Virus record (IMG/VR): IMGVR_UViG_3300047557_001530
Location: 64,001 to 128,000 of that record
Source of the DNA: a virus
DNA length: 64,000 nucleotides
Strand: one strand, 5' to 3'
Of the stretch, positions 1,417 to 63,701 are shown one piece after another. A program made the translations under genes and the position numbers. Positions within the stretch are counted from its first letter, which is position 1. The number at the start of each line of letters is the position of its first letter. The notes beneath the pieces were generated by a model. It saw only the letters and a list, made by a program, of their open reading frames with translations. It ran no database searches and was not told the origin of the DNA.

Positions 1417-2571
1417 ATGTCAGATATGTTAAACGAAAGATTTGAGGAGCTTGTAAAAGAACAAAATATTGTTCTTGAAGCAGGTGATCCAATGCCTACC
1501 GTTTCTGCTTCCGTAATTCCTGGTACAGGTAAGGAGCCTTCACAAATTTCCGATGTTCAAACCGCTAAGGCTGGTGGTAAGGATCCACAACCTTCTGTTC
1601 CTCCTACGGTTGCTATCGGTCAGAAAGCTGCTACTGATCTAGGTGGTACTACAACCACTCCTCATGAACATGATGAGGATGGCGAAGAGAATCCTGGTGC
1701 TAAGGCGGCGGCTCCTATTTCTCAAATTTCGGGTGATGCACAACAGGCACATCAAAAAAGCCCTGGAGATATGGCTGCAACTCCTACTGTAGGAACACAA
1801 GTTGCATACGGAACCACAACTGGTCCAAACGTAACTTATCCAATCAAGCCTTCTTTTGAAGAGCTTGATCTTTCTTCTGATGTTGCTGCATTGACTGAAG
1901 GAGAAGAGCTTTCAGAATCATATAAAGAGAAAGCAAAAACAATTTTTGAAGCTGCTGTAAAAGCTAAGCTTAACGAAGAGTACGCTAAGCTTGAAGAGCA
2001 CTTTGAAGCAAAACTTGCTGAGCAAGTTGAAGCTGTTAAAGCTGAACTTGCTGAAGAAGTCATGGGCACTGTTAACTATGGTATTGCCCAATGGATTGAA
2101 GAAAATCAAGTCGCTATTGATCGTGGCATCCGTAACGAAATCACCGAAGATTTCATTGCTGGTTTCATGAATCTCTGTAAAGAGCATTGGATCAACATCC
2201 CAGAGGATAAGACCGATGTTGTAGAAGAAATGGCTGACGAGCTTCGTGAGATGGAAGAACGCCTCAACGAACAAATTGAGCGTAATGTGGAATTAAATAA
2301 TCGTCTTGCTGAGTCGAGCAAAGTCGTAATTCTAAACCAAGTTTCAGAAGGACTTGCTGATACTCAAAAAGAAAAACTCGCTTCACTATCTGAAGGTGTT
2401 ACTTTTGATAACGCAGATCAATTTACTCAAGCAGTAAAAACTCTACGTAAGTCATATTTCCCAGAAGCAGTAACCAAATCAGAAGTAGGTGATGACGCTC
2501 CAGTAGCACTAAGCGAAGATGTATCGCCAACTATGGCTGCATACCTCCAAGCTCTTTCACGCTGGAAATAA
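1417..2571 (+). CDS. g22: Prohead scaffold/core protein gp22
   Basis: Acidic coiled-coil, KAKTIFEAAV motif, between g21 and g23. Confidence 0.92.
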   Translation: MSDMLNERFEELVKEQNIVLEAGDPMPTVSASVIPGTGKEPSQISDVQTAKAGGKDPQPSVPPTVAIGQKAATDLGGTTTTPHEHDEDGEENPGAKAAAPISQISGDAQQAHQKSPGDMAATPTVGTQVAYGTTTGPNVTYPIKPSFEELDLSSDVAALTEGEELSESYKEKAKTIFEAAVKAKLNEEYAKLEEHFEAKLAEQVEAVKAELAEEVMGTVNYGIAQWIEENQVAIDRGIRNEITEDFIAGFMNLCKEHWINIPEDKTDVVEEMADELREMEERLNEQIERNVELNNRLAESSKVVILNQVSEGLADTQKEKLASLSEGVTFDNADQFTQAVKTLRKSYFPEAVTKSEVGDDAPVALSEDVSPTMAAYLQALSRWK

Positions 2572-2577
2572 TTAAAT

Positions 2578-2585
2578 CATAAATA
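2578..2585 (+). promoter_or_regulatory. T4-type late promoter (NATAAATA) for g23; same box at 1372, 4121, 26476, 33602, 37632, 40895, 57625, 58359, 63697
   Basis: CATAAATA ~40 nt upstream of the g23 ATG; box recurs before structural genes; gp55 and gp33 are encoded in the window. Confidence 0.75.
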
Positions 2586-2621
2586 TTATCAAACGACAAT
2601 AATACGTTTTAAGAGGTAAAA

Positions 2622-4070
2622 ATGTTCAACGCTTCCCATCTTACAGAAAAGTGGGCACCTGTTTTAAATGCTGCTGAAGCTCCTGCTATCACAGATAAGC
2701 ACAAACAGGCTGTAACCGCTGTAATCCTAGAAAACCAAGAGCGTGCTCTCCGTGAGGACAGAATGCTCACCGAGGCTCCCAACACTGTTGGTGCTATCGG
2801 TCCTAACGCACTTTCAGGTTCAGGTCTTGACACCAAAACTGGTGGTCTAGCTGGTTTCGATCCTATCATGATCAGCCTAGTCCGTCGTGCCATGCCTAAC
2901 CTAATGGCTTATGACATCTGTGGCGTTCAGCCAATGAGCGGTCCTACAGGTCTCATCTTCGCCATGAAGGCTCACTATCAGCATCGTGGTGCTGCTGGTC
3001 TACGTAAAGGACGTGAAGCTCTCTTCAACGAGCCTGATGTAAACTTCTCAGCTAACACCCAGGGTCCTGATGCTTCAACTGGTTACAACGATCCAGTTGT
3101 ACCTATCGGTGTTGCTAACGATCCTTCCTACGCTGAATCCAACCCTGGTCTTCTTAATGATGACGGTTCGGGTGCTGGTACTTACGAGCGTGGCGTTCGT
3201 CCTATCGCCCGTGAGACCGCTGAAGTTCTTGGATCAGGTTCAACCCTATTCAACGAAATGAGCTTCAGCATCGAGAAGACTGCTGTAACCGCCAGAACCA
3301 GAGCACTACGTTCGGAGTACACTCTAGAGCTAGCTCAGGATCTTAAGGCTGTTCACGGTCTTGACGCTGAGCAAGAGCTTGCCAACATTCTCTCAAGCGA
3401 GATTCTCGCTGAGATCAACCGTGAAGTCGTTCGTACTGTATACACCATCGCTAAGCCTGGTGCTCAGAACAACGTTGCTACCGCTGGTGTATTCGACCTT
3501 GACGTTGATTCAAACGGTCGTTGGTCTGTTGAGAAGTTCAAGGGTCTTCTATTCCAGGTTGAGCGTGATGCCAACGCTATCGCTCAGGAAACTCGTCGTG
3601 GAAAGGGCAACTTCCTCATCTGCTCGGCTGACGTAGCTTCAGCTCTAGCGATGGCTGGTGTTCTTGACTATAGCTCGGGTCTAACTGGTGCTGGTGGTCC
3701 TTCCATCGGTCAGGTTGATGACACTGGCAACCTCATGGTTGGCACCATCAACGGTCGTATCAAGGTCTTCGTTGATCCTTATTCGGCTAACGTATCTAGC
3801 GATCATTACTATGTCATGGGTTATAAGGGAACCAATCCTTATGATGCTGGTCTCTTCTATTGCCCATACGTTCCTCTCCAGATGCTACGTTCGATTGATC
3901 CTAACACCTTCCAGCCTAAGATTGGCTTCAAAACCCGTTACGGCATGGTTGCTAACCCATTCGTATTCAACGGTGTTGATGCTGACGGTGTACCTATTCC
4001 TGATGCCGAAGCTCTTACTGCTTCCAAGAATATGTACTACAGACGTGTTCGTATCAAGAACCTCATGTGA
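2622..4070 (+). CDS. g23: Major capsid protein gp23
   Basis: LVRRAMPNLMAYDICGVQPMSGPTGLIFAM, YTLELAQDLKAVHGLDAE, FQPKIGFKTRYG motifs. Confidence 0.99.
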   Translation: MFNASHLTEKWAPVLNAAEAPAITDKHKQAVTAVILENQERALREDRMLTEAPNTVGAIGPNALSGSGLDTKTGGLAGFDPIMISLVRRAMPNLMAYDICGVQPMSGPTGLIFAMKAHYQHRGAAGLRKGREALFNEPDVNFSANTQGPDASTGYNDPVVPIGVANDPSYAESNPGLLNDDGSGAGTYERGVRPIARETAEVLGSGSTLFNEMSFSIEKTAVTARTRALRSEYTLELAQDLKAVHGLDAEQELANILSSEILAEINREVVRTVYTIAKPGAQNNVATAGVFDLDVDSNGRWSVEKFKGLLFQVERDANAIAQETRRGKGNFLICSADVASALAMAGVLDYSSGLTGAGGPSIGQVDDTGNLMVGTINGRIKVFVDPYSANVSSDHYYVMGYKGTNPYDAGLFYCPYVPLQMLRSIDPNTFQPKIGFKTRYGMVANPFVFNGVDADGVPIPDAEALTASKNMYYRRVRIKNLM

Positions 4071-13012: not shown

Positions 13013-14146
13013 ATGGCTCGTAAAGCAAACATTGAACAAGAAGCCCTCATCGCTTATATTTCCACTCACTTTGGCGAAGACTTTGGTAGCAACGCTGTAA
13101 TTGCTGCTGCCGAAGAATTTGGTAGTTCGTATCCCACCATCGCCAAGCGTCTTGATCAATACAAGACTGGTCATGGTCGTTGGAACCTGACTGCCCAAGA
13201 TATTGAAAACACTTACAACGCTCCTGCTGCTGAACCTGCTGAGCAAGCAGTTGAGCATGTTGTGATCCACCGTGAAAATCTGATTCCTGATAAAGATGCT
13301 AACTTCGTCAGCTTTGGTAACTTCAGTGATGTTAAGAAAATCATTTCTTCTGGTATTTTCTATCCTGTGTTCATCACTGGTATGTCTGGCAATGGTAAAA
13401 CTTTCGGTGTGGAGCAAGCTTGTGCTCAACTGAAGCGTGAACTGATCCGTGTGAACATCACCATCGAGACTGATGAAGACGATCTGATCGGTGGTTTCCG
13501 TCTGATCAATGGAGAAACTGTGTGGCACAACGGTCCTGTTATCGAAGCTCTTGAGCGTGGTGCTGTTCTGCTGCTTGACGAGATCGACCTTGCTTCTAAC
13601 AAGATCCTGTGCCTTCAGTCGATTCTTGAAGGTAAGGGCGTGTTCCTGAAGAAGACTGGTCGTTATGTGAAGCCTGCCGCTGGGTTTACCATCGTTGCCA
13701 CTGCCAACACCAAAGGTAAGGGTTCTGATGACGGTCGTTTTATTGGCACCAATGTTCTGAACGAAGCGTTCCTTGAGCGATTCGCTCTCACCTTTGAACA
13801 GGATTATCCTGGTCCGAAAACTGAGCAAAAGATTCTTGAGAAACTTTCCAAGAAGCTTGGCTGTCTGGATGAAGAATTCTGTGAGAAGCTTGCTGCTTGG
13901 GCAGACATTATCCGTAAGACTTTCAAGGATGGTGGCGTTGATGAAGTGATCAGCACCCGTCGTTTGTCCCACATCATTCGTGCCTACAGCATCTTCGGCA
14001 AGCGTATGAAAGCGATTCAAGTTTGTGTGAATCGTTTCGATGACGAAACCAAGTCCAGCTTCCTGGAGCTGTATGACAAGATCGACGCTAGCGTTGGTGC
14101 CGATATCAATAACGATGCTCCAGTGGAAGAGAATGAAGAAGCCTGA
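13013..14146 (+). CDS. cobS: CobS-like MoxR-family AAA+ ATPase
   Basis: GMSGNGKT Walker A, LLLDEID Walker B, ATANTKG, NEAFLERF, ISTRRL. Confidence 0.92.
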   Translation: MARKANIEQEALIAYISTHFGEDFGSNAVIAAAEEFGSSYPTIAKRLDQYKTGHGRWNLTAQDIENTYNAPAAEPAEQAVEHVVIHRENLIPDKDANFVSFGNFSDVKKIISSGIFYPVFITGMSGNGKTFGVEQACAQLKRELIRVNITIETDEDDLIGGFRLINGETVWHNGPVIEALERGAVLLLDEIDLASNKILCLQSILEGKGVFLKKTGRYVKPAAGFTIVATANTKGKGSDDGRFIGTNVLNEAFLERFALTFEQDYPGPKTEQKILEKLSKKLGCLDEEFCEKLAAWADIIRKTFKDGGVDEVISTRRLSHIIRAYSIFGKRMKAIQVCVNRFDDETKSSFLELYDKIDASVGADINNDAPVEENEEA

Positions 14147-24627: not shown

Positions 24628-24714
24628 GGAGGGTCAAGCCGATAGGTGACGGCAGCTGTCTTGAAAACAGTCGAGGTGTTAAAGCCCTTAGGCGTTCGAT
24701 TCGCCTACCCTCCG
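24628..24714 (+). tRNA. tRNA-Ser(TGA)
   Basis: Acceptor GGAGGGT/ACCCTCC, anticodon loop CTTGAAA, long variable arm, GTTCGATTC T-loop. Confidence 0.93.
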
Positions 24715-24718
24715 CTTC

Positions 24719-36676: not shown

Positions 36677-36973
36677 ATGTCTATTCAAGATTTACCAGAT
36701 GATGAAAAAGATGCTATTGATATTTTAGCAAAAGCTGGATACCTCAAAGCTTCCAATGATAAAATTGAAGTATCTTTAGAATCATCAAATACTTTAAATA
36801 TTCAACCAAAGGGAAATGTTTTTGGAGCAAAAGTAAAAGTAGAAAATGATGGAAGCATCACACCTACTCTCACTTTCGACACAAAAAAATTAAGAGATTC
36901 TAAAAGAATAGATGCTAAATCTGCTGTAGATCAAGCACTAGAAGATTATCTGAATGGTGGAGGCAATGTTTAA
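36677..36973 (+). CDS. Hypothetical protein
   Basis: MSIQDLPDDEK... after a late box and terminator hairpin. Confidence 0.6.
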   Translation: MSIQDLPDDEKDAIDILAKAGYLKASNDKIEVSLESSNTLNIQPKGNVFGAKVKVENDGSITPTLTFDTKKLRDSKRIDAKSAVDQALEDYLNGGGNV

Positions 36974-37439
36974 ATTATTTGAAGTTAAGGAAGGAAAATT
37001 AAAAATTTTACCTTCATTAAGGTTTAAAAATATTGGTGGGTTTATTATAATTTCAATTGTTGCAATTATAATTGCTAACTTATCAGGAGCATTGAAAGTA
37101 AATGAAAGAGATCTTTGGAAATTTTATAATCTTTTAATTAATAGACTTGGTTTACAACAGGAACTACCTGACATAAGAGATCATGAAAAACAACTTGACG
37201 CTCAAATTGAATTGGAAGTTGATAAAGCAATTCGTGATTACGAACGCTTGACAGGAGACGATGGAACTGTTAGAATACCACCACCACGACGTTCCGAGAA
37301 ACCAGTAGACACCTCGGTGTGCTACACTCCTGAATGTCAAGCACTTGGAGGAGAAATCCGAATCTGTGCTCCATGGGTTCCAGATTGCCCCTTGACAAAC
37401 CAAGAACAATCTGGTACAATAAACAAGTTGTCTCAGTAG
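36966..37439 (+). CDS. Hypothetical membrane protein with Cys-rich C-terminus
   Basis: One TM helix; CYTPECQALGGEIRICAPWVPDC. Confidence 0.65.
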   Translation: MFKLFEVKEGKLKILPSLRFKNIGGFIIISIVAIIIANLSGALKVNERDLWKFYNLLINRLGLQQELPDIRDHEKQLDAQIELEVDKAIRDYERLTGDDGTVRIPPPRRSEKPVDTSVCYTPECQALGGEIRICAPWVPDCPLTNQEQSGTINKLSQ

Positions 37440-37552
37440 CTCAGTGGAATAGAGCAACCGCCTTCGGGAGTTCCGAGTGGACTTAATGGGGAGCATTACC
37501 CTATACTCTCATAAGCGGTCGGTCGCTGGTTCAAATCCAGCCTGAGACGCCA
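37430..37552 (+). tRNA. tRNA-Arg(TCT) interrupted by a 46-nt insert in the anticodon loop
   Basis: GTCTCAG/CTGAGAC acceptor + G73-CCA, D and T arms intact, ACCGC-CTTC[46 nt]TAA-GCGGT; promoter TTGACA-N17-TACAAT at 37392-37420. Confidence 0.8.
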
Positions 37553-37624
37553 GGGCGATTAACTCAGCGGTAGAGTAATTCCCTTACAAGGAATGAGTCA
37601 CTGGTTCGATTCCAGTATCGCCCA
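37553..37624 (+). tRNA. tRNA-Val(TAC)
   Basis: GGGCGAT/ATCGCCC, ATTCC-CTTACAA-GGAAT. Confidence 0.93.
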
Positions 37625-38741: not shown

Positions 38742-38895
38742 CAGCACTGGTCGGGACCCCCTCGATTGTCCTCGTCGGATTGGACATTAAATATGCCGAC
38801 TGGTGCGGATGGGGTTTTTAACTCCCGCCGAGTTTCCAATTTTCTCGTAATCAAAATTGGTGGCGAGCCTGCTCACGGGGATTGACCGTCCCCAC
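38723..38895 (+). ncRNA. manA-like structured RNA next to a tRNA
   Basis: Pseudoknot TGTCC/GGACA + GTCGG/CCGAC, then TGGTGCGGATGGGG..CCCGCC GAG..CCAATTTT/AAAATTGG TGGCG; recalled as resembling the cyanophage manA motif, not searched. Confidence 0.55.
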
Positions 38896-40926: not shown

Positions 40927-43900
40927 ATGTCTAGACTAAGAGCTGATAGAGTTGTCAACAAAAATGCAAATGGTCCTTTTGAAGCAAGTGAAGGTATTAA
41001 AATACCATTAAATAAATCAATTACTATTGGAACTGATAGTGGTAGCACTGGGGACTTTTTAAAAAAATTAGGTAATAGTTTAGAATGGGGTAGTATTCCT
41101 CCCGCATCTCAAGCAGAACTTGGATTAGTTTATATTGGATCTGGATTAAATGTAGATGAAAACGGATTACTTACCACGCAATTTGATGGCACTCTTGGTG
41201 ATTTGCAAGATGTTGATATAACTACAGATCCTCCAGTTATAGGGCAAGTTTTAAAATGGAATGGTACTAAATGGGTTCCTAATACAGATGCAGTTTTTTC
41301 TGGAGACTATCTAGACTTAATCAATTTACCCGAATTAACTTTAAATGCTATAACTGAAAATGGTAATGCCACGTTGAATGAAATTCTTATTGGTGGGTTG
41401 GGAGTTTATGATCCTACTAATACAGATAGAAATAGTTTTTATGAATGGAGCGGTGATACTTATAATCAATATATTGAGACATTAACTAATCTAGGTAAAT
41501 ATAATATTACCATTGATGGTAATACAATTCTTTATGTTCATACCAAATCTGGGGATAATAATCCAGGTGTTGGAATCAATAAAGTTCCTGCGTTTAAAGG
41601 TCTTGATGTAGCAGGTAATTTTGGATTGAATGGTAGTATTCATATTAATGAAAGTATTAGATATGTACAATCATTGGTTCCAGAATCTACTGCTACCAAT
41701 ATCGATTTAGGATCAACTACTAGATTGTGGAGATCTGGATATTTTCAAACTAGTGTATTGATTGGTTCTGGCACAGATACTGGAACAGCCAATCAAAAAC
41801 TTCAAGTTACTGGTGGTGCTTATGTTTCTGATAATGTAGGTATAGGATACACAGCACCAACAGATAAGTTGGCAGTTAATGGCAATGAATATGTTAATGG
41901 AAACATTACTTTAACTGGCGAACTTCGTGGTCCTTCTGTATTTGTAATTGATCCAGCGGTAGTTGGAAACAATACAGGAACAGTTCAAATTAAAGGTGAT
42001 CTTCAAGTTGATGGAACGACCACCACAATTAATTCTACGATTACAAGTATTGCTGACCCTATCGTAGAACTAAGAAGAGGCAATTCTTTATTAGGTGCTG
42101 ATGGTGGCATTCAAGTTAACTTAACGACCAATGGCACTGGCACTGTTACTTCATACCAGAGAGTACAATGGAACAATAGCAATACTCGCTGGGAAACAAC
42201 TGACGGCACTACACCAAAACCAATTGTTAATACTGTAGATAACTTTACTGTTGGTGGTACATTTACTTTTAACAATAACGTCACTTTTGGTGACGTAGTA
42301 ACTGACACTATTACAGTAAACTCACAGTTTGTAAATGGAACTAAGCTTAGAACTGCACAAAATATAAGCAACACTCTTGCATTGGCAGCATATGATGTTG
42401 ATGGAACATCCTATACAGATTTAATTACATTAACTGCATCTAATACACCAACACTAACACTGGTTTCTACTGGAGTTGGTTCTATTAACAACATGAACAT
42501 CGGTGCTACTACAAGAGCTACTGGTGCGTTCACAACTCTAGATGCTAATAGCACAACAACGATCAATCCAGCAAACGCTAACGTATCTATTACTCCTTCT
42601 GGAACTGGAGTTTTAACAATTTCTTCTGGTGCAGTTGGTTCAATTAATAATGTAAATATCGGTGCCACCACTAGAGGCACTGGTGCTTTCACAACTCTAG
42701 ATGCTAACGGTACTGTTATTCTGGGAGATGCTTCTGCAGATACAGTTACTGTAAATGGAACTTCTACGTTTAATGCTGATGTTACCTTAAATACTAATCT
42801 TACTATAGGAAATGCTGATACTGATACAGTCACTATTTCTTCTCAATTTGCTGCAAGTACCCAACTTAAAACTTCCAAGGGAACAAATGAAACATTAAAT
42901 ATTGCAGCTTATGATGTAGATGGAACTGCGTATACTAATTTAATTACTTTAACTGCAGCGAATAATCCTTTACTAACAATTAGTTCTGTTGCTACAGGTA
43001 CAATTAATAACATGAGCATCGGTGCATCTACTAGAAGCACTGGTGCTTTTACTACATTGCAAGCAAATAGCACCACCACAATTAACCCAGCAAACGCTAA
43101 CGTATCTATTACTCCTTCAGGAACTGGGGTTTTAACTATTTCTTCTGGTGCTGTAGGTGCTATTGACAATGTAAATATCGGTGCCAGCACTAGAGGTACT
43201 GGTGCATTTACAACATTAAATGCTAATGGTGATGTTACTCTCGGTGATGCATCAACTGATAACGTAACAGTAAATGCAACTTCCACATTCAATTCTAGCG
43301 TTACTTTATCTGGTGTAACTTCTAATTTAATTGTTGGAGGTGAACTTCGTGGTCCTTCTGTATTTGTAATTGATCCTGCTGTTGTTGGTGATGATACAGG
43401 TCTTGTCAGAATTAAAGGTAATCTTGAAGTTCTTGGTACAACCACAACTATTAACTCAACAGTAACTACAATTGCAGATCCTTTCCTTGAACTTCGTAGA
43501 GGTAATTCTTTAACCGCTGCGGATGGTGGTATTCAAGTTAATTTAACTACAGACGGTTCGGGAAATGTTACTTCATCTCAAACTATTCAATGGAATAATT
43601 CTTCATTGAGATGGGAAACTACCGATGGTACTACTGCAAAACCAATCGTTAATACAGTAGATAGTTTTACATTTGCGAGTTCTATTTCTTTTGATGCAAA
43701 CGTAACATTAGGCAATGCTGTATCTGATACGATTACTGTAAACTCACAGTTTGTAAATGGAACTCAATTTAGATCTTCGCAATCAAATGGCAACACACTT
43801 GCAATTGCTGCATATGATTTAGATGGAACTACTTATACTAATTTAATTACATTAACTGCATCTAATACTCCAACATTAACATTAGTTTCTACTGGTGTTG

Positions 43901-45441
43901 GTAGTATTGATAACATGAATATTGGTGCTACTACTAGAGGCACTGGTGCTTTTACAACATTAAGTGCCAACAATACCGTTAGCTTGTCTCCTGTTAATAA
44001 TAATGTAACTATTTCTCCTACAGGCACAGGAGTTTTGACGTTATCTTCTGGTGCTGTAGGAACTCTTGACAACGTAAACATTGGTACTACCACAAGAGGT
44101 ACTGGTGCATTTACTACTCTTAGTGCTAATGGTAATGTAATTCTAGGTGATGCTTCTGCGGATACTGTAACTATTAATGGAACAACAACCATCAATGCCC
44201 CACTAACATTTACAGGTGCTACATCACACTTAACATTAACTGGAGAATTACGTGGTCCAGCCACGTTTATTATTGACCCAGCAACTGTTGGTGATGACAC
44301 TGGAATAGTTCAAATTAAAGGAAATCTTGAAGTTCTTGGAACTACTACAACAATTAATTCTACAATCACTACTATTGCAGATCCAATTGTTGAACTTAGA
44401 AGAGGAAACTCTTTAACCGCTGCTGATGGTGGCATTCAAGTTAACTTAACAACAACTGGTGGCGGAGTAGTATCAACATATCAAAGAATTCAGTGGAACA
44501 ATACAAACACTCGTTGGGAAACTACTGATGGCACTACTGTAAAACCAATCGTCAACACAGTAGATAGCTTTACTTTTGCTAATACAATTAATTTTAACTC
44601 TAATGTAACTATTGGAGATGCTGTTTCTGATGTTATTACTATCAATTCTCAATTTGCAAATGGTTCAGAATTAAGAACAGGAACTTCTAGTGGCAATAAT
44701 TATTCTCTTGCAGCATATGACGTAGATGGTGCCGCTTATGCAGATTTAATTACCTTAACTGCATCTAATACACCAACTGTTAATATTATTTCTACTGGTG
44801 TTGGTACTATCGATAATATGAATATAGGTGCTACCACAAGAGGAACTGGGGCATTTACAACTTTAGATGCGAATAGTACAGTTGTATTATCTCCAGCAAA
44901 TGCTAATGTAACTATTTCGCCATCAGGAACTGGAACTGTTACAATTTCTCCAGCGGGTGGATTGACAATTGCTCCAGCTACATCACTATCTATCTCTCCT
45001 ACAGTGGTGGGAACTATCAACAATGTAAACATTGGTGCCACTACTAGAGGTACTGGTGCATTTACAACTTTAGATGCTAATGGTAATGTAACATTAGGAG
45101 ATGCTTCTGGTGATGCTATTAATATTAATGGTACTACTTTAGTAAATGCCCCTATGTCATTTACTGGGGCTGCTTCGCATCTTACTTTAACTGGAGAACT
45201 TCGTGGTCCAGCTTCATTTATCATTGATCCAGCTACAGTAGGAGATGATACAGGAACTGTTACAATTAGGGGTAGTTTAACAGTTAATGGTGTTAATACT
45301 GCAGATAGACTAAAAAATACTGCTGCTCCTGCAACTGCATCGTCTACAGGAACTGCTGGCGACATTAGATATGCTAGTGGATTCCTGTATGTTTGTGTTG
45401 CTACAAATACCTGGCAGAGAGTGGCGATTGCTACTTGGTAA
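40927..45441 (+). CDS. Long repeat-rich tail-fibre/adhesin-like protein (1504 aa)
   Basis: Late box upstream; T/G/N/S-rich; repeats ELRGPxxFxIDPAxVG and NIGATTRGTGAFTTL; C-terminal GTAGDIRY..YVCVATNTWQR fibre motif. Confidence 0.8.
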   Translation: MSRLRADRVVNKNANGPFEASEGIKIPLNKSITIGTDSGSTGDFLKKLGNSLEWGSIPPASQAELGLVYIGSGLNVDENGLLTTQFDGTLGDLQDVDITTDPPVIGQVLKWNGTKWVPNTDAVFSGDYLDLINLPELTLNAITENGNATLNEILIGGLGVYDPTNTDRNSFYEWSGDTYNQYIETLTNLGKYNITIDGNTILYVHTKSGDNNPGVGINKVPAFKGLDVAGNFGLNGSIHINESIRYVQSLVPESTATNIDLGSTTRLWRSGYFQTSVLIGSGTDTGTANQKLQVTGGAYVSDNVGIGYTAPTDKLAVNGNEYVNGNITLTGELRGPSVFVIDPAVVGNNTGTVQIKGDLQVDGTTTTINSTITSIADPIVELRRGNSLLGADGGIQVNLTTNGTGTVTSYQRVQWNNSNTRWETTDGTTPKPIVNTVDNFTVGGTFTFNNNVTFGDVVTDTITVNSQFVNGTKLRTAQNISNTLALAAYDVDGTSYTDLITLTASNTPTLTLVSTGVGSINNMNIGATTRATGAFTTLDANSTTTINPANANVSITPSGTGVLTISSGAVGSINNVNIGATTRGTGAFTTLDANGTVILGDASADTVTVNGTSTFNADVTLNTNLTIGNADTDTVTISSQFAASTQLKTSKGTNETLNIAAYDVDGTAYTNLITLTAANNPLLTISSVATGTINNMSIGASTRSTGAFTTLQANSTTTINPANANVSITPSGTGVLTISSGAVGAIDNVNIGASTRGTGAFTTLNANGDVTLGDASTDNVTVNATSTFNSSVTLSGVTSNLIVGGELRGPSVFVIDPAVVGDDTGLVRIKGNLEVLGTTTTINSTVTTIADPFLELRRGNSLTAADGGIQVNLTTDGSGNVTSSQTIQWNNSSLRWETTDGTTAKPIVNTVDSFTFASSISFDANVTLGNAVSDTITVNSQFVNGTQFRSSQSNGNTLAIAAYDLDGTTYTNLITLTASNTPTLTLVSTGVGSIDNMNIGATTRGTGAFTTLSANNTVSLSPVNNNVTISPTGTGVLTLSSGAVGTLDNVNIGTTTRGTGAFTTLSANGNVILGDASADTVTINGTTTINAPLTFTGATSHLTLTGELRGPATFIIDPATVGDDTGIVQIKGNLEVLGTTTTINSTITTIADPIVELRRGNSLTAADGGIQVNLTTTGGGVVSTYQRIQWNNTNTRWETTDGTTVKPIVNTVDSFTFANTINFNSNVTIGDAVSDVITINSQFANGSELRTGTSSGNNYSLAAYDVDGAAYADLITLTASNTPTVNIISTGVGTIDNMNIGATTRGTGAFTTLDANSTVVLSPANANVTISPSGTGTVTISPAGGLTIAPATSLSISPTVVGTINNVNIGATTRGTGAFTTLDANGNVTLGDASGDAININGTTLVNAPMSFTGAASHLTLTGELRGPASFIIDPATVGDDTGTVTIRGSLTVNGVNTADRLKNTAAPATASSTGTAGDIRYASGFLYVCVATNTWQRVAIATW
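41920..45290 (+). repeat. Nested internal tandem repeats of the fibre gene
   Basis: ELRGP module 4x (~41920, 43340, 44245, 45195); near-identical DNA such as CCAGCAAACGCTAACGTATCTATTACTCCTTC at ~42568 and ~43087. Confidence 0.85.
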
Positions 45442-45561: not shown

Positions 45562-46641
45562 ATGACTGCTACTCTCGCTCAAAAGCGTGAAAGCAACACT
45601 TGGGAACAGTTCTGTGAGTGGGTGACTTCTACCAACAATCGTCTTTACGTTGGTTGGTTTGGAACTCTAATGATTCCTACCCTGCTCGCTGCTACTATCT
45701 GTTTCATCGTTGCCTTCATTGCTGCACCTCCCGTTGACATCGACGGTATTCGTGAACCTGTTGCTGGTTCACTTCTTTATGGAAATAACATCATCTCTGG
45801 TGCTGTTGTTCCTTCTAGCAATGCTATCGGACTTCACTTCTATCCTATTTGGGAAGCTGCTTCTCTCGATGAGTGGCTATATAATGGTGGACCATTTCAA
45901 CTGGTCGTCTTCCACTTTCTGATTGGTATCTATGCCTACATGGGTCGTGAATGGGAACTATCTTACCGACTGGGTATGCGTCCTTGGATTTGTGTTGCCT
46001 ACTCTGCACCCGTTGCTGCTGCTTCTGCAGTGTTCCTGGTCTATCCCTTTGGTCAAGGATCCTTCAGTGACGCAATGCCTCTTGGGATTTCGGGAACTTT
46101 CAACTACATGCTTGTTTTCCAGGCAGAACACAACATTCTTATGCATCCTTTCCACATGTTGGGAGTTGCTGGTGTCTTCGGTGGTTCTCTTTTCTCTGCT
46201 ATGCACGGATCTCTTGTCACCTCTTCTCTCGTCCGTGAGACGACAGAAACTGAGTCTCAAAACTATGGATATAAGTTTGGACAAGAAGAAGAAACCTATA
46301 ACATCGTTGCCGCCCACGGTTACTTTGGAAGACTCATCTTCCAATATGCCTCATTCAATAACAGTCGTAGTCTACACTTTTTCCTTGCTGCTTGGCCTGT
46401 TGTTGGCATTTGGTTTGCTGCTCTGGGTGTTAGCACTATGGCATTCAACCTGAACGGCTTTAACTTCAATCAGTCACTGGTTGATTCTCAGAATCGTGTG
46501 ATTAACACTTGGGCCGATGTGCTTAACCGTGCCAACCTTGGCTTTGAGGTAATGCATGAGCGTAATGCTCACAACTTCCCTCTAGACCTTGCTGCTGCAA
46601 ATACAACCCCTGTTGCACTCACTGCACCAGCTATCGGTTGA
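45562..46641 (+). CDS. psbA: Photosystem II D1 protein
   Basis: [32 protein letters not shown]; 359 aa, no intron. Confidence 0.99.
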
Positions 46642-50010: not shown

Positions 50011-50044
50011 CAAATGTTACCGAATTATTCAAATATATAAAATA

Positions 50045-50153
50045 CGTTCATCCCTCTGGGACGGAAGTAAGCCGACTCGGAACGCATCGTTCATTTACAA
50101 AATTCTACACAAAGTATCGAATTTTGTAAACGGAAAAGCCGACTGAAGGAACG
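50045..50153 (+). ncRNA. Tandem glutamine riboswitch (glnA-type aptamers x2)
   Basis: Two units CGTTCA-[stem]-CGGAA..AGCCGACT..GGAACG with P1 CGTTC/GAACG, upstream of a YRG peptide. Confidence 0.75.
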
Positions 50154-59104: not shown

Positions 59105-59283
59105 CACTCTTCCAAAATAGTTTGGAAGGGTATTTTAAAACCAATTTTGCCTTGATGCAGCATCATAAATACTCTTTGACAGAGATTGAAAGTCTCATGC
59201 CTTGGGAACGTGAAGTATATGTTTCTTTGTTATTGCAACACATACAAGAACAAGAAGCTAAACGGGAAGCAGCTAACAGGTAA
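59098..59283 (+). CDS. g51: gp51-like hub assembly domain, in the -1 frame of g26
   Basis: RIALFQNSLEGYFKTNFALMQHHKYSLTEIESLMPWEREVYVSLL; missed by the ORF track; first ATG only at 59155. Confidence 0.75.
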   Translation, partial: RIALFQNSLEGYFKTNFALMQHHKYSLTEIESLMPWEREVYVSLLLQHIQEQEAKREAANR

Positions 59284-62200
59284 TGAAAAATTCTGCCGAA
59301 AATAAATTTAATTTATCAAAAAGAGTAAGGCTACTCGGCAAAATTGTTGGCTATAATACTGCGTTTAATTTAGTTGGATCTAAAAAATTAGGGCAAGGTG
59401 CCTTTGGTACTGTATATTCTTCCAGAGGTGCTGCTGTTAAAGTTGCTCATGCTAAAGGTCAAAAGGAACTTAAGCATGAAGTTTCAATGCTTGAGCAATT
59501 AAAAGGTCTTAAGATAGCCCCACAGTTATTGGGCTCTGGAAAAGGATACGCTGCAATACAACAGTTTAAAGGTAATACATTAAATGATTCTGGAAATTTA
59601 AAAAGAATAAAAGAAGATCCAGTATTTGCTGATTATATTTTTAGAAAAATTGTTGAAGCAATGGGTGCATTGCACCGCAAAAATATTGCTCAAAAAGATT
59701 TACATGCAGGAAACATTTTTATTACTGATGACTACCAAGTAAAAATTCTTGATTATGGTCAGGCATCTAAAGGGTATCCTATAACATACTACGAAACATT
59801 TTTTGGTAGTAACTATGACCCTAAGCAAGGGGCGATAGGATTAATACATCATTTGTTTTTAAATACTCAATCGTATAAAACATATAAGAGAATATTAATT
59901 AATGCAATAAGAATTATATGCAAAAAGAAAGGAATTAGTTCTAAAATTGCATTGCAAAATTATGAAGCAATAGAAGGTAACGAAGAAAAGGAAACAGAAT
60001 ATTTTAATGTCTTAGAAAATTTAGCTCGTCACCCTGAGAATGATCAATCAGATGTAAGCAATTTTTACAGTGCTCTTGATACAGCATTAAAAATTAATAC
60101 AAAAAATCCTTTAAAGACAAAAAGAGTATCATCCAAAACTAGATTACTATCTACATCTTCTACGACAGCTAGAAAAATAAATCAAAAGTATTCATTGAAA
60201 GGAACTATTCCACAAGCATCTGAAGGTGGAGTATTCTCTGGACCAGAAAGTGGCTATCCAGTTATACTACATGGCACCGAAGCTGTCGTTCCATTGGATG
60301 ATCTTAACATACCTCCAGCAAGATATATTCAAGGGCAAGCTGGTGTTTGGGAGCTAGAATTTGAATCAGTTCTAGATCATGCTATTTACTTTGCTGGCAA
60401 GTCTCCATTCCCCAAAGGTGCTAAACAAGCAGAAATACTAGATTGGTTGCAGGATACTTTAGGTATTACCTGGAAAGATATTTCTGAACATCGTGATAAA
60501 ATTATGGATACGATACGTCAGCTAACCCCTGACGCATGGGAAGGAGGCAACTATCCATATTTACATATCCCTAGAGTCGATCCTGATTTTGAAATTGAAA
60601 CTTATGCAGATGCTGATGAAGAAGAGCCAGATGATCTTGATGATTTATTAAATGAAATACGAGATGAAGATGAAGACGAAGATGAGGCTGAAGGTTTAGA
60701 TGAATTACTTGATTTAATAAGGGATACATCTGTTTCTGATACAGAAGAAAAAGAAACAGAGAAAAAGATAGAACAAGCAAACGATATTGCTGAAGACATT
60801 CAGATTGATCCAGATGTTTTATCTGATCTTCCCCCAAGTTTGCAAGCATCTTTAGTTAAAGTAATTAATAGAAAAACAGGTGCTACTATTAATGCTGGTG
60901 ATAAAAAAGAAACAACATCTGCAATTACTAACACTAAAATATACAGATTTTTAACAAATAATTTATTAAAAATTGAAGGGCAATTAGATTCTATTAATGC
61001 TTCTATCAAAGAACAAAATATTTTACTGCAAACTAATTTAGATTTAAATCTAAAAACATTGCAATCGGTAGAAGAACAGGATGCATTGTTAGAAAGAAAA
61101 CTTGATACCATATTAGATCTTTATACTAATCAAACTTCTTTAATTAAAAAATACGAAGAAGATTTAAAGAGACAAGCAACTGAAGCTAGGTTAGAACAAC
61201 AAAGAGATTCTGCATTTACTACTGGATTCACTGACGTTGGTGGGCATACATTAGATTCAAATAGTTTACTCGGCAGATTGGTTAAATTTTTTGGTAAAAA
61301 AATAGCTGTAAAATTGTGGAAATTTTTACCATTAGCTATTAGATCAAGGGCTAAACTTTTAGGCAAAGCATTACGTCCAGGTAAACTACTTGGTAAAGTA
61401 GCTCAAAGAATAGCGGCAAAGAAAGCAGCAGACAAAGCAACTCAAAAAGCAACACAAAAATTTGTTGCAAAAGGTTTTGAACATATAGCATTACCAGCAT
61501 TAAAATCTGCTGACAATGTTGCTGCTAAAGGAGTACAAAAATCTGGCGGCAATTTATTGCAGAGAGCTTTGAGCAGTTCTGTAGTTCAAAAAGCATTGGT
61601 TAAAAAACTTGGTAAAGAAGGTGCAGAAAAACTTACAGTTAAGTTAGCAGCTAAATTAATTCCTGGTGTTGCTACGGCATATGGATTAGGAGAAGGTTTA
61701 GCTAGAATAATGATGGGTGATGTCAAGGGTGGATTCTTATCATTTGGTAGTGCAATACCTGTAGCTGGATATGGATTCGCTGCGGTGGATGTCTTGCGAG
61801 ACATTGATGTGGCTGCATACACGAAACATATTGAAGGACCAGCAATGTCTGGTAAACTTGGCGATGAACAGTTTGCTGCGTTCATTGCAGAGGCATTGGG
61901 AGTTACTGAAAATCAGTATGAAACAGGAACATTGAGTGCTAAACCTGGAGTTGCTATGCTTCATGGTACAGAATTGATTGTGGATAAAAATCAATCAGAA
62001 CAAATGAATCCAATGGCTATTGTTGGGGGCAGTTTATTAGCAGCAACAACAAATTATATTAACAGCATGGGTCCTCTCGCAGCATCTATAGCTCCTACAT
62101 TTAAGCAAGTTGCTGCTCCAATTGCAGAAGAATATGGTATTCCTAAAACATTTACACAAACAAAAGTTGGTGGAGCTTTACCTAATTTAAGTCAAGAACT

Positions 62201-63701
62201 TAAGAGAATAAAAGATAAAAGAAAACAAACACCAGAAGAAGAGCTTGAAGGCATTGAAAAAGATTTATTAGAGACACAGAATTCAGAATCATTTGCAGAA
62301 AAATTATTAAAGATATTGGATCCTCAAGGAAGATTCCAAGAGTTACTTAAAAATATAAACAATCGTCCTACTCCAACAGTCGATGGAGATTCTTTAATGG
62401 CTGAAGGTGGTTATGCCGTAGAAGCATCGGATGTTGGGGATAAATTTGGTGATAGAGGAGGAAAGCATAAAGGAATTGATATTGCTAGTAGCAAATTTAA
62501 AATGGGAACACCTATATCAATAATTAAACCTGGAGTTGTTGAGGATATTGGAAAACTTTCTGATGGAACTGGAGATCCTGGTGGATGGGGGAATTTTGTT
62601 GTTGTTAAACATGATGATGGATTATATTCTTTATATGGTCATTTGAGTGAAGTTAATGCAACAAAAGGACAAAGATTAGAACCATCTGCGAATGGAGTTT
62701 TCCCTGTTATCGGTAAAATTGGTAGCACAGGAAGATCGTCTGGTGCTCATTTGCACTTAGAAGTTGGAACTGGTTGGACAGGAGGAACTTTAAAAGGACA
62801 TATAAATCCACTTCCTATTGTAAATCAATTGATGCGTGGGGGCGGAAATATTAGAAAAGTTGATAGACCAACTGGAACACCAGTAAAAGTTGAAGGTCTT
62901 GGCAAACAAGGTGTTATGGCTAATAAGAATTTTGGTTCTACTTCTGGCGTAGGATCAAAAGGATATTTAATTGTTCCTGGTCATGCTGCTGGAGGAGGAG
63001 CACCTGGAGAAGCAGCTTTAGTTAAACAATTAGCACAAAATGCATACAGCAACTTAAAGCAAAAATATCCTGATGCAAACATTAAATATGTTGATGTAAA
63101 TTCTATGTTTGAAGATACTGAAGCTGGTTTTAATAAACAAAAGCAATGGTATAAAAAAATGGAGCAAGAAGGATGGGAAGTATTAGAAGTTCACATGGAT
63201 GCATCAATGGAATCTGGACAAGGAAGTGGACGAGGAGTTATTGTTCCTAAAGGAGAATTAAACGCAGTAGAAAAACATTTTGCAGAAAACTTTGGAGCAT
63301 TTCCTAGAGGGCATAGAGATCTAGCAGCACCAAATAGAGGAGCTAGTATTTTTGAATTAGGTAATATGTCTCCAGAGTTGCAAAGATCTGTTCAATCAGG
63401 ACAAGTAACAAAACAACAGTTAGATGCATTAACTTCTCCTTTTGAAAGATCTATTGCTGCTGGGTTAAATTTACAATCAATCACTCCTCCATCTGGTCAA
63501 CGACAAAGATTTGAATCGATGCAAGGTAAAGACAAAGATGCAGGCACTAAGCATTTAATCGTTAATCAAGCGACAAGACCTGCGGTTGGTGGTCAAGGAT
63601 CACAAAATATTACTTTTGTCCCTATGGGTTCTGGTAGATGGAGAACAGAAAATGAATACTCGGACACTATCAGAAGTCTTATTATGTCTAGATTACGATA
63701 A
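59283..63701 (+). CDS. Tape-measure/hub-like multidomain protein: Ser/Thr kinase + acidic/helical region + M23 peptidase + Amidase_3
   Basis: LGQGAFGTVY/AVK/E/KDLHAGN/DYG; LHGTE motif x2; HKGID..YGHL..HLHLEV; PGH..E..EVHMD..FELG. Confidence 0.85.
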   Translation: MKNSAENKFNLSKRVRLLGKIVGYNTAFNLVGSKKLGQGAFGTVYSSRGAAVKVAHAKGQKELKHEVSMLEQLKGLKIAPQLLGSGKGYAAIQQFKGNTLNDSGNLKRIKEDPVFADYIFRKIVEAMGALHRKNIAQKDLHAGNIFITDDYQVKILDYGQASKGYPITYYETFFGSNYDPKQGAIGLIHHLFLNTQSYKTYKRILINAIRIICKKKGISSKIALQNYEAIEGNEEKETEYFNVLENLARHPENDQSDVSNFYSALDTALKINTKNPLKTKRVSSKTRLLSTSSTTARKINQKYSLKGTIPQASEGGVFSGPESGYPVILHGTEAVVPLDDLNIPPARYIQGQAGVWELEFESVLDHAIYFAGKSPFPKGAKQAEILDWLQDTLGITWKDISEHRDKIMDTIRQLTPDAWEGGNYPYLHIPRVDPDFEIETYADADEEEPDDLDDLLNEIRDEDEDEDEAEGLDELLDLIRDTSVSDTEEKETEKKIEQANDIAEDIQIDPDVLSDLPPSLQASLVKVINRKTGATINAGDKKETTSAITNTKIYRFLTNNLLKIEGQLDSINASIKEQNILLQTNLDLNLKTLQSVEEQDALLERKLDTILDLYTNQTSLIKKYEEDLKRQATEARLEQQRDSAFTTGFTDVGGHTLDSNSLLGRLVKFFGKKIAVKLWKFLPLAIRSRAKLLGKALRPGKLLGKVAQRIAAKKAADKATQKATQKFVAKGFEHIALPALKSADNVAAKGVQKSGGNLLQRALSSSVVQKALVKKLGKEGAEKLTVKLAAKLIPGVATAYGLGEGLARIMMGDVKGGFLSFGSAIPVAGYGFAAVDVLRDIDVAAYTKHIEGPAMSGKLGDEQFAAFIAEALGVTENQYETGTLSAKPGVAMLHGTELIVDKNQSEQMNPMAIVGGSLLAATTNYINSMGPLAASIAPTFKQVAAPIAEEYGIPKTFTQTKVGGALPNLSQELKRIKDKRKQTPEEELEGIEKDLLETQNSESFAEKLLKILDPQGRFQELLKNINNRPTPTVDGDSLMAEGGYAVEASDVGDKFGDRGGKHKGIDIASSKFKMGTPISIIKPGVVEDIGKLSDGTGDPGGWGNFVVVKHDDGLYSLYGHLSEVNATKGQRLEPSANGVFPVIGKIGSTGRSSGAHLHLEVGTGWTGGTLKGHINPLPIVNQLMRGGGNIRKVDRPTGTPVKVEGLGKQGVMANKNFGSTSGVGSKGYLIVPGHAAGGGAPGEAALVKQLAQNAYSNLKQKYPDANIKYVDVNSMFEDTEAGFNKQKQWYKKMEQEGWEVLEVHMDASMESGQGSGRGVIVPKGELNAVEKHFAENFGAFPRGHRDLAAPNRGASIFELGNMSPELQRSVQSGQVTKQQLDALTSPFERSIAAGLNLQSITPPSGQRQRFESMQGKDKDAGTKHLIVNQATRPAVGGQGSQNITFVPMGSGRWRTENEYSDTIRSLIMSRLR

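Follow-up and report, generated by a model that had tools for sequence, protein, structure and literature searches.

Introduction

No intron had been seen in a phage tRNA gene according to a review from 2014 (PMC3984707). A subsequent study (Devoto et al., 2019, PMC6784885) reported 'enigmatic' introns in tRNA genes of the Lak megaphages of Prevotella; one of these introns, which lies in a tRNA-Thr(TGT) gene, 'may encode a tRNA'. These introns are present in some and absent from other related genomes and are near-identical in sequence where they occur, and the report offers no mechanism, boundary logic or link to a ligase (PMC6784885). In the literature searched, this was the only published mention of such introns that was found, and no paper testing them was found. 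Here we describe an interrupted tRNA-Arg(UCU) gene in a 64,000-nucleotide (nt) stretch of viral DNA, hereafter called the window, which comprises bases 64001-128000 of the 171-kb IMG/VR record IMGVR_UViG_3300047557_001530 (labelled G000), the genome of a T4-like cyanophage. The 46-nt insert that splits the anticodon of this gene is a miniature cyanophage variant of a barely described kind of tRNA intron.

Group I introns, which occur in bacterial tRNA-Leu(UAA), tRNA-fMet and tRNA-Arg(CCU), are usually longer than 200 nt, self-splicing and built around a conserved P3-P8 catalytic core. The introns of archaeal and eukaryal tRNAs are removed by proteins, namely EndA/Sen endonucleases together with a ligase, and are marked by a bulge-helix-bulge (BHB) motif, in which two 3-nt bulges at the splice sites are separated by a 4-bp helix. 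Breakage and repair of the anticodon loop are described for phage T4, where the host defence nuclease PrrC breaks tRNA-Lys between positions 33 and 34 and leaves ends with a cyclic phosphate and a 5'-OH that are healed by Pnkp and sealed by the RNA ligase Rnl1. The tRNA-like mascRNA/MEN-beta RNAs (RF01684) are released from a longer transcript by RNase P and RNase Z. Both enzymes recognise the acceptor/T-arm half of a tRNA, which consists of 7+5 bp plus the discriminator base, and RNase P cleaves on the 5' side of the first acceptor pair. Cleavage by RNase Z takes place directly 3' of the discriminator and yields a 3'-OH, and a downstream C or CCA inhibits the enzyme (PMC7479834).

Results

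A predicted tRNA-Arg(UCU) gene is split between C35 and U36

Positions 37430-37549 of the window are matched end to end by the Rfam tRNA model (RF00005, model positions 1-71) with 55.1 bits against a gathering threshold of 29, and the Rfam alignment places a 49-nt insertion within the anticodon loop. The register of the insert was set by alignment to the uninterrupted tRNA-Arg(UCU) genes of S-SZBM1, Sf-CH11 and S-CAM1 and of the syntenic relative G008, which gave a clean insertion of 46 nt with CTTC on one side and TAAGC on the other. The alignment confirmed positions 37430-37552 as a predicted tRNA-Arg(UCU) gene with an insert at 37466-37511, exactly between C35 and U36. An earlier reading of the letters and their open reading frames (ORFs) alone, here called the sequence-only reading, had described an intact tRNA-Arg(UCU) body split inside its anticodon by a structured insert, and both the Rfam match and the orthologue alignment bear this out. 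It had also pointed to the register as decisive; homology settles this in favour of excision after C35, which restores UCU, and excludes the alternatives UAU and CAU. When the insert was removed in silico, a 77-nt product was obtained that is called as tRNA-Arg(tct). The locus is organised as follows:

37392-37420, + strand: putative sigma70-like promoter, TTGACA-17-TACAAT with TG extension (11/12 in a consensus scan), 9 nt upstream of the tRNA
37430-37465, + strand: 5' exon of tRNA-Arg(UCU), with acceptor 5' strand, D arm, anticodon stem 5' strand and C32 U33 U34 C35 (Rfam, orthologue alignment)
37466-37511, + strand: predicted 46-nt intron of type 1, shaped like the top half of a tRNA (orthologue alignment; covariance model R1, 56.8 bits; covariation)
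37512-37552, + strand: 3' exon with U36 A37 A38, anticodon stem 3' strand, variable loop, T arm, acceptor 3' strand, G73 and CCA (Rfam, alignment, in-silico splicing)
37553-37624, + strand: tRNA-Val(UAC), an Arg-Val pairing as in other cyanophages

The gene's own putative promoter and its encoded CCA, both part of the sequence-only reading, were thus recovered. The CCA (37550-37552) directly abuts tRNA-Val(UAC), and at the homologous locus of other cyanophages an uninterrupted tRNA-Arg(UCU) is likewise followed at once by tRNA-Val(UAC). The promoter sits inside the 3' end of a 161-amino-acid ORF without Pfam match (36954-37439), which ends 10 nt within the tRNA-Arg gene.

For the split gene, ARAGORN makes no call in its default mode, an observation that would favour a decaying pseudogene or an assembly artefact. 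In its intron mode the program calls tRNA-Arg(UCG) with an intron at position 38, which is the wrong register.

The insert recurs at the same site and in a second tRNA

A scan of IMG/VR for tRNA-Arg exons lying 30-60 nt apart yielded three further interrupted genes, and a pattern built on the conserved helices found the insert at the same tRNA-Arg(UCU) site in 5 IMG/VR and 10 metagenome contigs. Altogether the same architecture is present at the same site in 15 contigs, 14 of them besides the window's own, from at least 13 assemblies. The copies comprise 10 distinct insert sequences of two types, GGGAGU...ACUCUC-A (type 1, 46 nt) and CGCCUU...AAGGUG-A (type 2, 43-45 nt), and each type was found in several different tRNA-Arg backgrounds. 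Two candidates of the metagenome scan, L015 and L017, were discarded as chance matches. Patterns placed on the P3 end of the insert alone returned already known copies, chance matches and ordinary tRNA ends only. No match to either intron type was obtained by blastn among the cultured phages of INPHARED, and the pattern search found the insert in none of 185,579 species-representative prokaryote genomes.

A second copy lies outside the window in the same genome (137651-137767), where a tRNA-Thr(UGU) gene is split between G35 and U36, the same position as in the Arg gene, by a 45-nt member of the same insert family. This insert has a third sequence in its closing helix P1, GGUCUU/AAGAUC. After splicing in silico, the Thr gene matches the annotated tRNA-Thr(UGU) of S-CREM1 and Aeh1 over the full length, whereas ARAGORN wrongly calls the interrupted gene Pro(UGG). 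The two interrupted genes are the only tRNA-Arg(UCU) and the only tRNA-Thr(UGU) of the genome, and they have the exon flanks CCGCCTT and TAAGCGG in common.

The recurrence of the insert in other phage tRNAs, suggested as a check in the sequence-only reading, was therefore found in 14 other contigs and in the tRNA-Thr(UGU) of the same genome, and the scenario of an insert unique to this assembly is contradicted by its presence in at least 13 assemblies and by covariation. A decaying pseudogene or assembly artefact, which would have to account for the same design with compensatory changes in all 15 contigs and for intact exons, promoter and CCA, is extremely improbable.

Two further features were seen in the second tRNA cluster and its vicinity. 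The Rfam abiF RNA motif is found at genome positions 138028-138064 among the tRNA genes of that cluster (55.8 bits, gathering threshold 37). At 139017-139109 lies a 93-nt tRNA-like gene, which has no Rfam call at gathering level; ARAGORN reads it as Arg(GCG), and by eye its anticodon loop contains GUA (Tyr), its variable arm is long and its D arm is oversized.

The insert is predicted to fold as the acceptor/T-arm half of a tRNA

A covariance model (R1) was built from the structurally unambiguous copies and then used to align all copies, as MAFFT misplaces the one-base length difference between the intron types. The parts of the insert in the window are:

37466-37471, + strand: P1 5' strand GGGAGU, acceptor-stem mimic, paired with 37505-37510 (covariation)
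37472-37481, + strand: P2, D-arm-like mini-hairpin UCC-GAGU-GGA with conserved RRGU loop (both modelled pairs covary)
37486-37504, + strand: P3 hairpin AUGGGG-AGCAUUA-CCCUAU, T-arm mimic of 6 bp with a 7-nt loop (covariation and minimum-energy fold)
37505-37510, + strand: P1 3' strand ACUCUC, which carries on directly from the 3' strand of P3, giving 6+6 = 12 stacked bp (covariation, sequence reading)
37511, + strand: unpaired, discriminator-like A, the last intron base, invariant in all copies (alignment of copies)

In the structural alignment, which leans towards the model's own structure because it is made through the covariance model, 97.4% of the paired cells are filled by pairs, compared with 83% in shuffles and 37-50% when the partners are slid. 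Changes on both sides were observed at 9 pairs among the 10 distinct sequences, and covariation supports P1, P2 and P3 as the three helices of the insert. P1 always has 6 bp; it occurs in three sequence versions (GGGAGU/ACUCUC, CGCCUU/AAGGUG and GGUCUU/AAGAUC), all with 100% pairing, and 4 of its 6 pairs change on both sides. P2 is a hairpin of 2-3 bp with an RRGU loop, and its covarying pairs are CC/GG, against GA/UC in the Thr copy. P3 always has 6 bp and a 7-nt loop and is 98% paired, including a G-C/A-U double change. Its loop is UUCAAUU or UUCAAGU in type 2, which corresponds to the T-loop consensus, and AGCAUUA in type 1; positions 3 and 4 are C and A in every copy, and at positions 1 and 5 type 2 has U and A where type 1 has A and U. 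The three constants of 6 bp in P1, 6 bp in P3 and a terminal unpaired A hold for 10/10 distinct sequences.

On this model the insert is the acceptor/T-arm half of a tRNA, with 12 stacked bp, a T-loop-like cap, a D-like hairpin and one unpaired base at its 3' end. The three-way fold put forward in the sequence-only reading stands for its closing stem GGGAGU/ACUCUC and its hairpin UCC-GAGU-GGA. Its third hairpin, TAATG-GGGAG-CATTA, had to be replaced, being incompatible with the minimum-energy fold and the covariation, both of which give P3. The idea that P3 mimics the anticodon stem-loop of an initiator tRNA was rejected as well: GGG-AGCAUUA-CCC occurs in type 1 only and has no U33, and type 2 has a T-loop.

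When the introns were searched alone against Rfam, the two best alignments of type 2, both below threshold, were to tRNA (14.5 bits), covering the T arm, the acceptor 3' strand and the discriminator, and to mascRNA (12.5 bits, E 1.4, gathering threshold 42.5). Type 1 had no Rfam match at E up to 10. The type-2 intron aligns end to end with mascRNA, with which it has in common the acceptor stem, the T arm and a small hairpin resembling the D arm, the anticodon arm being reduced or absent, and the release proposed below would likewise occur at the 5' end of the acceptor stem and after the discriminator. At this score it is no member of the family, and the likeness is one of architecture; mascRNA is moreover a eukaryotic nuclear RNA that does not lie within a tRNA and whose flanks are not religated.

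A rival reading is that no working tRNA is made from these genes by splicing. The long-armed RNA could act as a decoy or shield towards anticodon nucleases or modification enzymes, or a released mini-tRNA could be the actual product, with the tRNA halves as by-products. Conservation beyond the needs of pairing (the G.U at P1 pair 2, the RRGU loop and the CA in the P3 loop) fits such a function, and mascRNA-like RNAs are stable elsewhere, although the alignment to mascRNA is weak. However, the genome, in which AGA accounts for 54% of the Arg codons and ACA for 36% of the Thr codons, has no tRNA-Arg(UCU) or tRNA-Thr(UGU) gene other than the interrupted ones, the orthologues of relatives are ordinary tRNAs at the same loci, and the exons keep full tRNA features. 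We consider an unspliced or product insert unlikely, and the shield or decoy against host anticodon nucleases offered in the sequence-only reading found no support in this analysis.

No ribozyme or bulge-helix-bulge is recognised at the junctions

A compact, conserved three-way junction of 43-46 nt has a size typical of small ribozymes, and the insert could in principle cleave or splice itself. Neither intron type alone has an Rfam ribozyme match at E up to 10, the hammerhead, twister, pistol, hatchet and HDV-like families included, and none is found at gathering level in the window. The insert lacks a hammerhead core, its P1 is wholly different between the types, two precise cuts would be required, and it is far too short for a group I or group II intron. 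Such an activity is very unlikely. Like group I introns, the insert resides in the anticodon loop of a bacterial-type tRNA and is sporadic and probably mobile, but at 46 nt it has no Rfam group I match at gathering level or at E up to 10.

The insert further resembles archaeal and eukaryal introns in being short, ribozyme-free, located in the anticodon loop and, as proposed here, removed by protein and religated. It does not have their BHB: a symmetric 4x4 internal loop, CUUC/AUAA, lies between the anticodon stem and P1. Alternative pairings were examined by hand for BHB registers and rejected, since both candidate bulges lie at the same end of the helix. The position, 35/36, also differs from the 37/38 of BHB introns, and no EndA homologue is present in the phage. 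The claim that the insert is too small for group I and shows no BHB accordingly agrees with all these searches.

The junctions coincide with putative RNase P and RNase Z sites

In 10/10 distinct sequences the intron begins with the first P1 pair at the 5' junction and ends with the single unpaired A at the 3' junction. The positions expected for RNase P and RNase Z thus coincide with the splice junctions, which were fixed independently by homology. The unpaired A (37511) is followed by UAA of the tRNA's own anticodon loop.

A splicing route can be proposed on this basis. Host RNase P would cut 5' of the first P1 pair, i.e. at the 5' splice site, leaving C35 with a 3'-OH, and host RNase Z would cut after the discriminator-like A, i.e. 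at the 3' splice site, leaving a 5'-phosphate on U36; 3' of the RNase Z site lies UAA, in place of the CCA that inhibits this enzyme. With the tRNA body keeping the two sides together, the nick in the anticodon loop might then be sealed by the phage ligase of T4 Rnl1 type or by a second phage ligase, and a nick with 3'-OH and 5'-P would be a suitable substrate for ATP-dependent ligases of the T4 Rnl1 kind. We infer excision, junction and end chemistry alike from the sequences. The splicing route that the sequence-only reading had left unspecified can be made more precise: the insert is modelled as a mimic of the tRNA top half with ends at RNase P and RNase Z positions. Of the mechanisms considered, a protein-dependent route, with cuts by RNase P and RNase Z in this genuine, conserved and tRNA-shaped intron and sealing by the phage ligase, has the best support and in our estimate about an even chance of being correct.

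The phage encodes a predicted RNA repair cassette, and its likely hosts show no RNA ligase

Outside the window, at genome positions 164627-168539, an RNA repair cassette was found that encodes Rnl1, a Pnk kinase, a Pnk HAD phosphatase, a 126-amino-acid ORF and a second RNA ligase. The genes for Rnl1 (164627-165796, PF09511, 105 bits), the kinase (PF13671, AAA_33, 74.5 bits) and the phosphatase (PF25109, HAD_PNKP, 96.6 bits) are adjacent (164627-166696), and the second ligase, which has a PHA02142 OB fold, follows 1.2 kb further on. Rnl1 gives a weak match to the tRNA-specific C-terminal domain of T4 Rnl1. By gene content, these genes are predicted to form a T4-type tRNA repair set of Rnl1 and Pnkp. 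No RtcB, RNase Z or EndA-type endonuclease was found in the phage genome, and PF01974 (EndA/Sen) was absent from the phage record, the search covering this record and not the hosts. Of the genes that the sequence-only reading had proposed to look for, Rnl1, Pnk and a second ligase are hence present, and RtcB and a splicing endonuclease are not.

The only other large intron-bearing contig, G001 (96.7 kb), carries the same Rnl1-Pnk cassette; in its lineage an HNH endonuclease gene lies between Rnl1 and the kinase (L045:4134-4655). Ligase and intron were also found on separate contigs from the same samples, and Rnl1 was not found in the intron-less S-SZBM1, Sf-CH11 and S-CAM1.

As judged from psbA, the likely hosts are picocyanobacteria of the Cyanobium/Synechococcus type, and the five nearest genomes were tested. 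RNase Z was found in 5/5 of these, above the equivalog cut-off, and RNase P RNA in 3/5, while Rnl1, Rnl2-family and RtcB ligases were found in 0/5. This suggests that the host can cut and that only the phage can seal.

The same gene content is compatible with a different chemistry. Cyclic-phosphate ends made by some nuclease could be healed by the Pnk kinase and the HAD phosphatase of the phage before Rnl1 seals them, in the manner of tRNA splicing in yeast and plants and of the repair of anticodon breaks by T4. The adjacency of Rnl1, AAA_33 kinase and HAD_PNKP phosphatase in G000 and in the G001 lineage agrees with this, and in hosts without RtcB the phage repair set would be needed for the heal-and-seal route as well. 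On the other hand, the phage record holds no tRNA-splicing endonuclease domain, and the junction helices form the symmetric CUUC/AUAA loop and not a BHB. The heal-and-seal route also leaves unexplained why the intron keeps a stack of 12 bp, capped by a T-loop-like loop, and a single unpaired A exactly at the junctions, and the Rnl1-Pnk cassette is widespread in intron-less relatives, so that it is explained by ordinary tRNA repair. We regard this route as rather unlikely.

Several observations weigh against release by RNase P and RNase Z followed by ligation. The kinase and phosphatase beside Rnl1 fit healing and sealing from ends with a 2',3'-cyclic phosphate and a 5'-OH equally well. The insert has no anticodon arm, type 1 has no canonical T-loop (AGCAUUA), and, searched alone, type 2 scores far under the Rfam tRNA threshold and type 1 gives no hit. 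RNase Z of B. subtilis, unlike archaeal enzymes, failed to process arm-less pre-tRNAs (PMC7479834), and bacterial RNase Z may therefore not accept the intron as a substrate. The covariation stems from few independent events (the two main types and the Thr copy), and the search patterns fixed part of P2 and P3, but not P1. Rnl1 was moreover rejected as a marker of the intron: an R1 match is present in 1/50 Rnl1-bearing IMG/VR contigs, several complete genomes lack the intron, and phage B23 has Rnl1 and no intron. Rnl1 without the intron is widespread in this phage clade, so the ligase can be no more than permissive. The link between them is one-way at most, with the intron occurring only where the ligase is present, and it can be tested in the two large contigs only. 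The invariant G.U wobble at pair 2 of P1 (37467 with 37509), which is kept in all three P1 sequence types, is accounted for by none of the explanations considered.

The insert is sporadic and probably mobile

Syntenic relatives with about 80-88% nucleotide identity (G012, 98% complete, and G008) share the tRNA clusters, in which their tRNA-Arg(UCU) and tRNA-Thr(UGU) genes are uninterrupted. The insert is a sporadic and probably mobile element. The anticodon stems of the Arg and Thr genes of G008 differ from the CCGCCTT/TAAGCGG flanks and from each other, and the identity of these flanks in the two interrupted genes suggests that exon flanks were co-converted when the insert moved from one gene to another. 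A recent intron swap between L010 and L019, in which the exons are identical and the intron types differ, was considered and rejected, as the flanks are only about 85% identical and the swap is not clean.

Because ligase-bearing syntenic relatives have uninterrupted tRNA-Arg and tRNA-Thr genes, the insert appears to be a sporadic passenger rather than a built-in regulator; it probably spreads among the tRNA genes of ligase-bearing phages as a tolerated passenger. That its occurrence among relatives is sporadic speaks against a built-in AGA/ACA switch, and the switch for AGA decoding considered in the sequence-only reading is weakened by the close syntenic relatives that have the same ligase and uninterrupted genes.

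Codon usage of the phage

AGA alone makes up 67-100% of the Arg codons in most giant ORFs (AGA and AGG together span the same range), which, together with the 54% of the whole genome, indicates that tRNA-Arg(UCU) matters to the phage. Two sharp codon classes were seen: the genes for the scaffold, g23, a cobS-like AAA protein, psbA, Rnl1 and the second ligase use CGT and avoid AGA and ACA, and most giant ORFs use AGA/AGG. The comparison was made in the window between 1417-4070, 13013-14146 and 45562-46641 on one side and 40927-45441 and 59283-63701 on the other. The remark in the sequence-only reading that cobS and g23 prefer CGT and the tail genes AGA is in line with this, and scaffold and psbA can be added to the CGT class. 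AGA accounts for 0/22 Arg codons in Rnl1 and 0/16 in the second ligase against the genome mean of 54%, and the adjacent Pnk genes use AGA; in Rnl1 of the intron-less phage B23, 7 AGA and 3 AGG occur among 21 Arg codons. This avoidance was considered as evidence that the ligase is made first, and rejected, as Rnl1 of intron-less relatives (including the near-complete G012 and G023) avoids AGA as strongly. Since the AGA bias is clade-wide and common to intron-less relatives, it says nothing specific about the intron and was dropped as evidence.

Apart from the tRNA clusters, the window contains g23, psbA, a wcaG RNA and a glutamine riboswitch. The wcaG RNA (38766-38874, 58.6 bits) lies within the tRNA island, and the riboswitch aptamer is found at 50043-50088 (36.4 bits); both are typical of marine cyanophages. 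The ORF at 59283-63701 encodes 1472 amino acids with an N-terminal Ser/Thr protein kinase domain and an M23 peptidase domain. A gene at 24628-24715 scores 49.3 bits with the Rfam tRNA-Sec model (gathering threshold 47) and is called tRNA-Ser(UGA) by ARAGORN; it is most likely an ordinary Ser tRNA with a long arm.

Discussion

The insert appears to be of the same kind as the Lak intron, as it interrupts the anticodon loop, is absent from orthologues, is modelled as an acceptor/T-arm half and ends at the first base and at the discriminator of that fold. In both cases phage tRNAs are concerned, one of them tRNA-Thr(TGT), and the introns are present or absent between relatives. Compared by description, the Lak insert is a full predicted tRNA in a Prevotella megaphage, whereas the cyanophage insert is a top half of 43-46 nt with neither anticodon arm nor CCA. 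It occurs in T4-like cyanophages, in tRNA-Arg(UCU) and tRNA-Thr(UGU) at positions 35/36, and together with an Rnl1-Pnk cassette of T4 type. Built of three helices, with a 12-bp ruler of fixed length and one discriminator base, and found in two tRNAs and two types, it is the smallest and cleanest version that we have seen described.

The repair of the anticodon loop in T4 resembles the route proposed here in the phage-encoded Rnl1 (with the weak C-terminal match given above), Pnk kinase and Pnk phosphatase, and in the proposed sealing of a nick in the anticodon loop. In the cyanophage, by contrast, the break would be programmed by the gene itself, would occur at 35/36 and remove 43-46 nt, and would give 3'-OH and 5'-P ends, for which healing is unnecessary.

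Such genes are overlooked or wrongly assigned by standard bacterial tRNA finders (UCG for the Arg gene, Pro for the Thr gene), so that phage tRNA repertoires are under-counted. The intron-less syntenic relatives are natural controls for the proposed route.

A third way of tRNA splicing in bacterial viruses, with neither ribozyme nor splicing endonuclease, is a tentative suggestion that we hold to be possible but doubtful. In it, RNase P and RNase Z, the universal enzymes of tRNA end processing, would free a mobile mini-tRNA that had inserted into the anticodon, and a T4-type ligase would join the exons. If true, every enzyme of this route would be one already known for another task. The phage ligase would have to be made before the tRNAs that read AGA and ACA, codons prevailing in the giant structural genes of the phage, could mature. 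Splicing would then be a natural role of phage Rnl1 besides repair, and T4-type RNA ligases would gain a role beyond undoing the damage done by host nucleases.

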